From: Escherichia coli
Lineage (GTDB): Bacteria; Pseudomonadota; Gammaproteobacteria; Enterobacterales; Enterobacteriaceae
DNA: 64,000 nt
Direction: 5' to 3' (one strand)
NCBI RefSeq assembly: GCF_046105845.1
Contig: NZ_CP151004.1
This document shows, one piece after another, positions 44,042-45,077 of the stretch; position 1 is the first letter of the stretch; the number at the start of each line of letters is the position of its first letter. A model generated the notes under the pieces. It was not told the origin of the DNA. It made no database searches and saw only the letters and a program-made list of their open reading frames with translations. A program made the translations under genes and the position numbers.

Positions 44042-44329
44042 TACCGTTGTCTCTCTTCCAGGTTTACTCCTGATAGAAAGTCATCGGCACTTGACGGTAA
44101 TTTCTTACGACCAAAAACCTCTTTGCGTCACATTTTTACAACAATTATGGCAGAGAAGATTAATGCCATTGGAATGAAGAGAGTAACGAATGATTAAACT
44201 GGCTAAACCGAATGACGAAAAATTCTGGAAAACAGCACGCAATTTCGTCAGGTGATTATTTTCGTCCCTAAGGAAACCACATAGGATGCTCACGGGTGCC
44301 TGAGACTTTCTGTTTTCAGGCTAACCGGG

Positions 44330-44400
44330 AATCAGAAAGACGAAGGCCCCGACCGATATTTCTATCAACCGAGGCCAACGAATGAACCTAGCAATTCAGA
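44330..44400 (-). ncRNA. sokB: predicted Sok-type antisense RNA against the mokB/hokB leader (coordinates approximate)
   Basis: Inferred from hok/sok locus architecture: the antisense regulator overlaps the mok translation-initiation region (mokB ATG at 44382). Not verified at nucleotide level. Confidence 0.3.
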
Positions 44401-44549
44401 TCTTAGCCTCTTACCCGCCATCCGGCAAGGAGAAAGGCTATGAAGCACAACCCTCTGGTGGTGTGTCTGCTCATTATCTGTATTACGATTCTGACATTCA
44501 CACTCCTGACCCGACAAACGCTCTACGAACTGCGGTTCCGGGACGGTGA
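44382..44549 (+). CDS. mokB: mok-type overlapping reading frame that couples hokB translation
   Basis: 55-codon ORF starting 58 nt upstream of hokB in the +1 frame, ending inside hokB; classic mok/hok overlap. Confidence 0.6.
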   Translation: MNLAIQILASYPPSGKEKGYEAQPSGGVSAHYLYYDSDIHTPDPTNALRTAVPGR

Positions 44550-44589
44550 TAAGGAGGTGGCGGCGCTCATGGCCTGCACGTCCAGGTAA
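44440..44589 (+). CDS. hokB: Hok-family type I toxin (small membrane peptide)
   Basis: 49-aa ORF MKHNPLVVCLLIICITILTFTLLTRQTLYELRFRDGDKEVAALMACTSR*; single TM helix; SD (aaggag) upstream. Confidence 0.85.
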   Translation: MKHNPLVVCLLIICITILTFTLLTRQTLYELRFRDGDKEVAALMACTSR

Positions 44590-44653
44590 GGGCAAGCGCG
44601 GGGATTTTCCCCGCGCATCTGACTAGCGGATTCATTTTCTCATGGCACCCCTT

Positions 44654-44833
44654 TTACACTTCAGTAGTGCATGTTTTTTTCGATGCACTAATAGAACCAT
44701 CATTACAGACAAATTTGCCGCCTGCCGTACAGTGTGAGATCCCCCCTTTAGAACCAGAACAGGGTTTGCGCCCGGCATCGGCATAAAAGGAAACAAGCGC
44801 TCCCATAACCAAGATAAGTGCCAGTTTTTTCAT
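44654..44833 (-). CDS. ydcA: small secreted Cys-rich protein
   Basis: 59-aa [62 protein letters not shown]; signal peptide plus 4 Cys; SD (ggaggt) upstream. Below the track length cut-off, so hand-called. Confidence 0.65.
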
Positions 44834-45003
44834 ATAACCTCCATGGTTTATCGAATCTTATGTTCGATTTGAACGTTATACGCTGGTTTATTTTGATACC
44901 GTTGATGAGATCAAAGATCGGGTGAATTGATTAAAGATAAGCCAGATGGACGTATGGACCAGGATTATGGTTTTATTTGTCATACAAATAAATATAATAG
45001 GCG

Positions 45004-45067
45004 CTTCCGATGTAGGCCCGTATTCTTCGCCTGTACCACGGGTCGGTTTTAGTACAGGCGTTTTCTT
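45004..45067 (+). ncRNA. rydC: Hfq-dependent small RNA RydC
   Basis: Sequence cttccgatgtaggcccgtattcttcgcctgtaccacgggtcggttttagtacaggcgttttctt matches the RydC sRNA as I recall it, including the pseudoknot-forming 5' region and a 3' terminator hairpin (cgcctgtac...gtacaggcg + U-run); lies between ydcA and cybB. Confidence 0.75.
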
Positions 45068-45077
45068 TAAATATCCT

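Follow-up and report, generated by a model that had tools for sequence, protein, structure and literature searches.

The trg-cybB segment of the Escherichia coli chromosome: known small genes, predicted folds of the hokB mRNA, and the RydC RNA

Introduction

We have analyzed a stretch of 64,000 nucleotides of Escherichia coli DNA (the window, whose numbering is used throughout), concentrating on positions 44300-45070. An initial annotation, made from the sequence alone, had described there a dense cluster of small genes. We are highly confident that this is an E. coli chromosomal segment running from trg to cybB, and that it holds five independent and already described small genetic units. None of the elements is new: all are annotated in E. 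coli K-12 and have already been studied experimentally.

The segment and its features

The gene order is collinear, in inverted orientation, with that of K-12 MG1655 (trg/sokB-mokB-hokB/yncP/ydcA/rydC/cybB), and the matching K-12 genes are b1421, b4429, b1420, b4428, b4774, b1419, b4597 and b1418. The features lie far outside what chance would give: of 5,426 complete E. coli genomes, 5,416 carry the same 1,051 bases with an identity of 95-99%. The flanking DNA has diverged from K-12 by about 3%, and within the segment the changes number zero in HokB and SokB, one in MokB, two in YncP and one, which keeps the base pair, in RydC.

An Rfam search of the 64-kb window finds sok (RF01794) and RydC (RF00505) above their gathering scores, both being families that a covariance-model search was expected to match if the initial reading was right; in the rest of the region, at E <= 1, the search returns only a chance snoRNA match below threshold. 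Protein-family matches (Pfam or NCBIfam) were obtained for HokB, YdcA and CybB. Our analysis directly shows the sequence identity with K-12 genes, the membership in these families, the alternative folds (as predictions) and the covariation in the end pairing. The features that we refer to below are as follows.

44282..44287, plus strand: putative -10 hexamer of hokB/mokB, TAGGAT, 6 nt before the mRNA 5′ end
44294..44651, plus strand: predicted full-length mokB-hokB mRNA, with its 5′ end placed by RF01794 position 1 and the family alignment
44294..44305, plus strand: tac element, GGGUGCCUGAGA, the 5′ partner in the end-to-end pairing
44336..44392, minus strand: sokB antitoxin RNA, 57 nt, overlapping the mokB Shine-Dalgarno (SD) sequence and start codon
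44345..44376, plus strand: Sok-target hairpin, in which ucb (GGCCCCG, 44345-51) sequesters the mokB SD (GAGG, 44371-74) in the full-length minimum free energy (MFE) fold
44365..44595, minus strand: spurious antisense open reading frame (ORF), 76 aa, TTG start
44382..44549, plus strand: mokB leader frame, 55 aa, overlapping hokB and ending inside it
44400..44428, minus strand: putative sokB promoter, -35 TTGCCG (44428..44423), 17-nt spacer, -10 TAAGAT (44405..44400)
44440..44589, plus strand: hokB toxin gene, 49 aa, SD AAGGAG (44427-32)
44524..44527, plus strand: TACG motif at hokB codon 29, read from the sequence
44567..44635, minus strand: yncP, 22 aa, antisense to the hokB 3′ end (K-12 b4774; in RefSeq)
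44596..44616, plus strand: G+C-rich hairpin directly after the hokB stop, -19.5 kcal/mol, z = -3.6
44638..44650, plus strand: fbi element, UCUCA-U-GGCACCC, the 3′ partner of tac, 48 nt past the hokB stop
44654..44833, minus strand: ydcA, 59 aa (NCBIfam NF007462)
44993..44998, plus strand: rydC promoter -10, TATAAT, a perfect hexamer 5 nt before the start, read from the sequence
45004..45068, plus strand: RydC small RNA, with 5′ seed, pseudoknot and U tail (Rfam RF00505)

The hokB, mokB and sokB genes

HokB matches Pfam PF01848 with 83 bits (cut-off 22) and NCBIfam NF007279 with 100.8 bits (cut-off 73), it is identical to K-12 HokB in every residue, and its exact sequence occurs on at least 1000 contigs. 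The PF01848 match, together with the RF01794 match discussed below, bears out the hokB/mokB type I toxin locus that the initial annotation had proposed, and the overlapping mokB and hokB frames were both found where it had placed them. They lie on the plus strand, in different frames. The hokB frame is +1 relative to mokB, and the mokB SD lies 7 nt before the mokB ATG. MokB differs from K-12 in one residue, H34Y, the result of a base change that is synonymous in hokB. It has no match in Pfam or NCBIfam, which is no surprise for a frame whose only role is to be translated (PMC9841398).

As in K-12, the locus sits between trg and ydcA; the 57-nt SokB is identical, the leader is unchanged from its 5′ end through 44484, and tac and fbi have the K-12 sequence. 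The differences from K-12 are three synonymous substitutions in hokB (one of them the source of MokB H34Y), three bases directly ahead of the mRNA start, and two 3′-UTR substitutions.

The antisense Sok RNA, which had at first only been presumed, is confirmed at the level of sequence: 44392..44336 on the minus strand agrees at every base with the annotated K-12 sokB (b4429). Its predicted fold is a single-stranded 5′ tail followed by a 14-bp hairpin (-22.2 kcal/mol, z = -3.7), with a terminator-like stem at 44376..44345. The annotated 5′ end of Sok follows 7 nt after the putative sokB promoter, which falls inside a block (AGCCTCTTACC...GCAAGGAG) that is conserved in all Hok loci found.

The Rfam model named sok has to be read with care. 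It matches 44294-44445 over its full length (model positions 1-157; 109.7 bits vs. a gathering score of 59, E = 4.8e-24), but the match is on the plus, hok-sense strand and ends on the hokB AUG; therefore, it marks the leader of the hok mRNA. The actual Sok RNA is the reverse complement of the middle part of this match.

Promoters and ends of the hokB mRNA

Alignment and published descriptions served to locate all three promoters (those of hokB/mokB, sokB and rydC). A consensus promoter scan of 44000-45150 reports zero sites, with both the hokB -10 and the Sok promoter, which scores 8/12, under its threshold. In an alignment of 51 Hok leaders, TAGGAT lines up with the TATAAT, TATGAT or TATACT of other loci at a fixed distance from tac; there is no good -35 for hokB/mokB (TTTTCG is found at 17 bp).

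For the 3′ end, we find no convincing intrinsic terminator after fbi, where the candidate is a hairpin at 44665-44690 that does not have a U tail, and for that reason the 3′ end is left unplaced. We infer only that it lies at the fbi element or beyond it.

Predicted folds of the hokB mRNA

The region 44294-44656 has an MFE of -142.1 kcal/mol (z = -5.6), and none of 100 shuffled sequences is equally stable. In the predicted full-length MFE fold, tac and fbi pair over 12 bp with one bulge. This duplex amounts to -21.3 kcal/mol, a value matched by one of 1000 shuffled 3′ regions. When the RNA is shortened at its 3′ end (MFE fold of 44294-44620), GGCCCC pairs instead with tac, and GAGGC, which includes the SD, pairs with GCCUC at 44406-10 (the SD/dcb pairing); this switch is a thermodynamic prediction drawn from a diffuse ensemble in which the frequency of the MFE structure is about 0. 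The tac/ucb and SD/dcb switch parallels the model for plasmid R1 as summarized in PMC9841398. The fold-back elements that the initial annotation had marked for checking are present in the predicted folds, and they covary across the family.

The G+C-rich hairpin after the hokB stop is probably, by analogy, the protective 3′ stem-loop of a processed mRNA; its analogue would be the last stem-loop of the truncated R1 hok mRNA (PMC9841398). The same hairpin falls within yncP, on the opposite strand.

How close is the resemblance to hok/sok of plasmid R1, the paradigm among type I toxin-antitoxin systems? Both systems have overlapping mok and hok frames and an antisense Sok directed against the mok translation start, and both have the predicted tac/fbi end pairing, ucb over the mok SD, and a switch after 3′ shortening. 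The window locus differs in being chromosomal, in its shorter leader (111 nt between the 5′ end and the conserved block), and in its weaker -10. It differs also at HokB residue 29, which is Tyr where the family has Cys, so that Cys here needs TadA editing. The A at 44525, within the TACG motif, is the reported TadA A-to-I editing site that changes Tyr29 to Cys (PMC12214031; bioRxiv 10.1101/2025.08.07.668861); judging from that work, editing at codon 29 would raise the toxicity of HokB. The editing site was absent from the initial annotation.

Comparative support across Hok loci

In other Enterobacterales, 47 of 50 Hok loci have the best complement of their own 5′ 12-mer 40-60 nt past the hok stop, and the tac motif is conserved across the 50 loci. 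The fourth position of tac forms a U-A pair in the window and in the hokB orthologues of lineage L021, while a C-G pair is found in L018, in L035 and in the first of two L034 copies; the second L034 copy also has a C at this position, but its fbi carries a mismatch at another place. This compensatory change among the hokB orthologues, between U-A and C-G, indicates selection on the RNA structure.

As a control, we paired each tac variant with the 3′ regions of loci that have a different variant. The contrast is only moderate (a mean of -19.9 kcal/mol for own pairings vs. -15.9 kcal/mol across variants), and the own group is the best in 3 of 11 rows, since tac varies little between loci and G-U pairing obscures what differences there are. 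For tac/fbi, the position of the complement and the particular compensatory change weigh more than this control.

A second pairing, between the 3′ UTR just upstream of fbi and the mokB start region, does not reach significance (median z of -0.46), and its sole support is a consistent position in 31 of 47 loci. This pairing of the hokB 3′ UTR with the mokB initiation region would be the reason why the yncP start codon mirrors the mokB start codon.

Eight Bradyrhizobium loci that match a 19-base pattern encode no Hok and were discarded. A search of viral contigs for HokB gave 87 pattern matches, of which tblastn confirmed none, and no phage relatives were retrieved by this route.

A spurious antisense ORF, and what automated annotation reports

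The minus-strand frame at 44365..44595 is the sole ORF of at least 60 aa within 44300-45070, which the initial annotation had called spurious, and we too reject it as a gene. The opposite reading takes the 76-aa frame as the real protein gene, with hokB secondary, and its attraction is that the frame is the longest in the interval and the only one visible at a 60-aa threshold. But this frame has no Pfam or NCBIfam match and is unannotated in K-12 or RefSeq. Its TTG start is lost in the hokB orthologue lineages L018, L021, L034 and L035, a stop codon falls within it in strain ECCNB12-2, whose complete genome is the closest, and substitutions that are silent in hokB alter its amino acids. We see practically no chance that it is a protein gene, and we keep hokB as the coding frame here. 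A 62-aa ORF at 44105..44293 was also considered and rejected as a gene: its only family match scores 16.3 bits, below the cut-off of 27, and it is unannotated.

The expectation that automated annotation would miss or miscall this region was only partly right. RefSeq/PGAP does leave out mokB, sokB and rydC, but it includes hokB, yncP, ydcA and cybB.

RydC

The sequence recognized by eye as RydC with its terminator is located by RF00505 at 45004-45067 on the plus strand (model positions 1-64), scoring 90.5 bits (gathering score 48; E = 1.6e-16 in the 64-kb window). The MFE of a nested fold (z = -1.05) is uninformative because RydC is a pseudoknot, and the pairing was checked directly instead. 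Helix S1 (45015-21 with 45038-44) has 7 of 7 standard pairs, and helix S2, which is also the terminator (45028-36 with 45052-60), has 9 of 9, the two being interleaved as in an H-type pseudoknot. In the published numbering of the pseudoknot, G37 and G39 of helix 1 are present, as are the pairs U23/U24 and U46/U47.

This RydC shares 64 of 65 bases with K-12 RydC (b4597), including the whole 5′ seed (nt 1-11). With A13G, the one difference, helix 1 has a G-U pair in place of A13-U40; the resulting allele is common, being found identically in 1113 of 5415 complete genomes. Both pseudoknot helices, the TATAAT -10 and the place beside cybB are those of E. coli and Salmonella RydC (RF00505), with the cybB stop 10 nt past the RydC end. 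The promoter, of the sigma-70 type, has no recognizable -35, and a TATAAT without a -35 fits its published description (PMC11340327). By analogy with the RydC that has been studied, this RNA would be an Hfq-dependent pseudoknot small RNA that activates cfa and represses trpE, pheA and csgD, and it would be transcribed from a TATAAT-only promoter under YieP repression.

A proposed mechanism for hokB/sokB, and its standing

What we propose about transcription, processing, RNase III cleavage, toxicity, editing, and dependence on Hfq or YieP draws on published work in K-12 and on plasmid R1. The weak promoter would give a mokB-hokB mRNA in an inert form, in which tac at the 5′ end would be clamped to fbi at the 3′ end and the ucb hairpin would bury the mokB ribosome-binding site. 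Slow 3′ trimming would take off fbi, tac would then pair with ucb, and the mokB site would open, so that hokB could be translated via its coupling to mokB. Were SokB to pair first with the mokB start region, it would block this sequence, and RNase III would cut the duplex. HokB itself, by analogy, would be a 49-residue pore former of the inner membrane, tied to ppGpp/Obg-dependent persistence.

One more difference from plasmid R1 bears on this scheme. The chromosomal hokB of K-12 is reported to show neither post-segregational killing nor activation by rifampicin (bioRxiv 10.1101/2025.08.07.668861), and therefore, on the chromosome, the full R1-style cycle may operate at less than full strength.

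Could the locus then be a decaying relic, with recognizable parts but with its regulation and killing lost, and now in neutral drift? The lack of killing and of rifampicin activation in K-12 would fit, as would the TAGGAT -10 in place of the TATAAT-like hexamers of most other Hok loci, and a DNA-encoded Tyr29 HokB that is weakly toxic unless edited (PMC12214031; bioRxiv 10.1101/2025.08.07.668861). Neutral drift is harder to reconcile with a leader, a Sok gene and a HokB protein that are invariant relative to K-12 despite the divergence of the flanking DNA, with three hokB substitutions that are all synonymous, with the compensatory change at tac/fbi, or with the conservation of the exact HokB sequence on so many contigs. 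The published link between HokB and persistence and the regulated editing (PMC12214031; bioRxiv 10.1101/2025.08.07.668861) also speak against it. We consider a relic improbable, and we favor a hokB/sokB locus that keeps the regulation outlined above, possibly at reduced strength.

YncP and YdcA at the 3′ end of hokB

The small gene yncP was absent from the initial annotation. YncP has 20 of its 22 residues in common with b4774 (the changes from K-12 being L3P and K6R), and the window allele occurs on at least 1000 contigs. RNA-seq coverage has led to yncP-hokB being listed as a convergent excludon (PMC12288877).

The 59-aa Cys-rich peptide attributed to ydcA is indeed encoded at 44654..44833 on the minus strand. 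It matches the NF007462 equivalog with 141.9 bits against a cut-off of 118, over residues 1-56 of 57 model positions. The protein begins with MKK, 13 hydrophobic residues and then ADA, and has 4 Cys; YdcA is described as a periplasmic protein with a signal peptide (PMC11340327), and we would expect its product here to be small and exported, with no function known for it. Its 59 residues, instead of the usual 57, result from the loss of 1 nt between 44667 and 44668, three codons ahead of the stop, by which ...CTN* becomes ...CTTEV*. This is a minority allele, found exactly on 25 contigs. Order, strand and spacing of ydcA and yncP are those of K-12 (b1419 and b4774); apart from the C-terminal TEV in place of N, YdcA differs from K-12 in its putative signal peptide (F9V and T12A).

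The position of these two genes suggests one further proposal, namely that a minus-strand read-through RNA from ydcA into yncP is an antisense regulator of hokB. Such an RNA would cover fbi and the 3′ hairpin, and it would either unlock the inert hokB mRNA or target the hokB mRNA for RNase III, thereby coupling ydcA induction to HokB. The geometry is suggestive: 3 nt separate the ydcA stop (44654) from the paired part of fbi, whose last base is 44650; yncP, which begins 18 nt after ydcA, spans the hokB 3′ hairpin into the coding region; and there is no strong terminator after ydcA on the minus strand. The excludon listing (PMC12288877) and the report that ydcA is induced by acid and YdcI (PMC7642389) point the same way. 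But the basis of the proposal is purely geometric, and the overlap could stem from tight packing; moreover, the arrangement is limited to E. coli and Shigella (PMC11340327), and in the 45 other loci that were examined the Hok mechanism does without it. We give this cross-talk little chance of being real, and regard yncP and ydcA as units independent of hokB.

Conclusions

For annotation, the segment carries three lessons. ORF tracks with a length threshold display here only a spurious antisense ORF, the RefSeq pipeline leaves out mokB, sokB and rydC, and the Rfam match called sok is reported on the hok strand. The one biological thread is a possible cross-talk between the convergent ydcA-yncP transcript and the ends of the hokB mRNA. 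If it were true, it would give a type I toxin an extra, E. coli-specific input, from acid and YdcI via ydcA.

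Small genes between 44300 and 45070

When all ORFs of at least 20 aa between 43800 and 45600 are read, and the whole window is scanned with Rfam, the following features are found.

44294-44445, + strand: Rfam "sok" match (RF01794), 109.7 bits
44392..44336, - strand: SokB antitoxin, the reverse complement of the middle of the Rfam "sok" match
44382..44549, + strand: mokB, 55 aa, overlapping the hokB frame
44440..44589, + strand: hokB, 49 aa, overlapping the mokB frame
44567..44635, - strand: yncP, annotated in K-12 and in RefSeq
44654..44833, - strand: ydcA, a 59-aa ORF with four cysteines, its N terminus resembling a signal peptide
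45004-45067, + strand: RydC (RF00505), 90.5 bits
44365..44595, - strand: antisense ORF, 76 aa, TTG start, the sole ORF within 44300-45070 that reaches 60 aa

The two RNA matches are the only ones in the window at the gathering threshold, and all that a permissive local Rfam scan added was one snoRNA match, below threshold and due to chance. Searches of Pfam and NCBIfam assign HokB to HOK_GEF and the Hok subfamily, respectively, and the 59-aa ORF to the YdcA equivalog model; for MokB, YncP and the antisense ORF they give no match. The initial annotation had described the overlapping + strand frames, the Cys-containing ORF, hok/sok and RydC just as we find them. Its observation is confirmed, and its reading as a cluster of small genes is supported with minor corrections, yncP having been overlooked. 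Every element is already known.

It had also called the antisense ORF spurious, and we agree. Besides lacking a family match, the ORF is unannotated in K-12 and RefSeq, has an internal stop in the closest complete genome, loses its TTG start in four orthologue lineages, and has its amino acids altered at every silent hokB change. The expectation that automated annotation would miss the region holds in part: a 60-aa threshold hides every real gene, and RefSeq/PGAP omits mokB, sokB and rydC, but hokB, yncP and ydcA are called.

The hokB mRNA and its antitoxin

The Rfam "sok" model represents the hok mRNA leader, because its + strand alignment runs from GGGUGCC to the hokB AUG. The antitoxin itself is predicted to fold into a 12-16-nt single-stranded 5' tail over the mokB start codon, followed by a 14-bp hairpin (-22.2 kcal/mol, z = -3.7) that the terminator scan also detects. 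It is preceded on the - strand by TTGCCG-17 nt-TAAGAT, which stops 7 nt short of the annotated 5' end. The putative hokB -10 element, TAGGAT (44282-87), lines up with the TATAAT-like hexamers at other Hok loci and is visibly weaker. The TadA editing motif is TACG, with an edited site known in hokB (PMC12214031); here TACG falls at hokB codon 29, and the A to be edited is 44525. For expression, RNA ends, processing and toxicity at this locus, we rely on published work with K-12 and plasmid R1.

The fold-back elements of the hok mRNA, which the initial annotation had proposed to check, are present. In the minimum free energy fold of 44294-44656 (z = -5.6), the first 12 nt (tac) pair with 44638-44650 (fbi) in 7 + 5 bp with one bulge, and the mokB SD, GAGG (44371-74), is buried in a hairpin at 44345-76. 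When the last 36 nt are removed, the fold shifts to GGGUGCC/GGCCCC (44345-50) and GAGGC/GCCUC (44406-10). These predicted folds, full-length and shortened, correspond to the two states of the plasmid R1 model, tac/fbi with ucb/SD and tac/ucb with SD/dcb (PMC9841398).

Directly upstream of fbi, the hokB 3' UTR (44621-44635) is complementary to the mokB start region (44380-44392) and resembles the Sok 5' tail (CUAGCGGAUUCAUU vs CUAGGUUCAUU). Because of this complementarity the start codons of yncP and mokB, which are on opposite strands, mirror each other, and the two peptides share an initial MN. In 31 of the 47 Hok loci compared, the best 3'-UTR/leader duplex begins 0-14 nt past the mok SD, with quite different sequences; across the 47, duplex energy z-scores are not significant.

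Comparison across Hok loci

When a single genome from each species was scanned for the conserved block AGCCTCTTACC-N7-11-GCAAGGAG, 67 loci were returned, 51 of them intact Hok loci, from Escherichia, Photorhabdus, Pantoea, Franconibacter, Kosakonia, Serratia and other genera. The tac motif occurs in 50 of the 51, and in 47 of 50 the best complement of a locus's own 5' 12-mer lies 40-60 nt past the hok stop codon. The tac/fbi duplex averages -20.0 kcal/mol within its own locus vs -12.6 with shuffled 3' regions. A cross-locus control discriminates only moderately, because the tac motif is conserved. The hokB orthologues differ at tac position 4 and its fbi partner: the window and L021 have U-A there, and L018, L035 and one of two L034 copies have C-G, which is a compensatory change.

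E. whittamii (L034, 1148-1672) carries two tandem hokB loci about 500 bp apart, one with an fbi mismatch, and in at least one E. coli genome (hit H10) hokB has another Hok gene next to it. Very short contigs in assemblies of unrelated phyla, Streptomyces morookaense (L006, contig164, 4.9 kb) and an Oscillibacter MAG (L010, 5.0 kb), carry complete R1-type hok/sok loci that are nearly the same as the E. albertii locus (L004); these are most likely contaminating enterobacterial plasmid DNA. The 19-base hok/sok pattern is exact in eight Bradyrhizobium loci (L007, L008, L013, L019, L020, L032, L045, L066), none of which encodes a Hok; two of the eight have a 161-aa ORF downstream.

RydC

RydC starts 5 nt past a perfect TATAAT (44993-98) that has no -35, as in the published description of the rydC promoter (PMC11340327). 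Its pseudoknot interleaves S1 (45015-21/45038-44) with S2 (45028-36/45052-60), and every pair is standard. From the Hfq co-crystal study, G37/G39 and the steps U23/U24 and U46/U47 are all found here. Published work describes repression by YieP and the targets cfa, trpE, pheA and csgD; for expression and protein binding we again rely on published K-12 work.

Alleles and genomic context

Of 5,426 complete E. coli genomes, 5,416 contain the surrounding 1,051 bases, with 95-99% identity (top match 98.9%). K-12 MG1655 has the same order, cybB, rydC, ydcA, yncP, hokB, mokB, sokB, trg, but inverted. By three-way alignment and translation, HokB is the K-12 protein (three substitutions, all synonymous) and SokB is identical at 57/57 nt. 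Variants are found in MokB (H34Y; exact sequence on 11 contigs), YncP (L3P and K6R; at least 1000 contigs), RydC (A13G, which pairs with U40 as G-U; the exact allele is shared by 1113 of 5415 genomes) and YdcA (25 contigs). YdcA has two substitutions in the putative signal peptide, and its gene has lost 1 nt between 44667 and 44668; the protein has 59 rather than 57 residues because the deletion swaps the terminal N for TEV. Exact-sequence look-ups find the same sequences elsewhere, so these variants are real alleles and not sequencing errors.

The trg-hokB spacer (44042-44293) varies among E. coli, and in several complete genomes (H15, H19-H24) the match to the query does not begin until base 130 or 318, one of them with IS1 nearby; despite this, the hokB-type upstream region is kept in E. 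whittamii and other Escherichia lineages. Elsewhere in the window, the gapC (gap) ORF adjoining cybB (45797-46798) is intact at 333 aa, vs a pseudogene in K-12 MG1655. At 54321-54367 azoR is joined directly to pdxI, a junction contiguous in only 145 of 5,426 complete genomes, and the 7.1-kb ynbD-ynbC-ynbB-ynbA-ydbD block of most E. coli is missing. The closest complete genome, VCSW5, has an IS200C of about 700 bp between ydcO and ydcL (~33354) that the window lacks.

A possible antisense role for ydcA-yncP

YdcA is described as a protein of unknown function with a signal peptide, and E. coli and Shigella are the only groups in which its gene flanks rydC (PMC11340327). Reports also tie it to induction by YdcI/acid and to sensitivity to 3-hydroxypropionate (PMC7642389). 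yncP and hokB are listed as a convergent excludon (PMC12288877). By geometry, a - strand ydcA-yncP transcript, if made, would cover fbi and the hokB 3' hairpin. We speculate, from this geometry and one RNA-seq-based excludon listing, that such a transcript might modulate the activation or decay of hokB mRNA.
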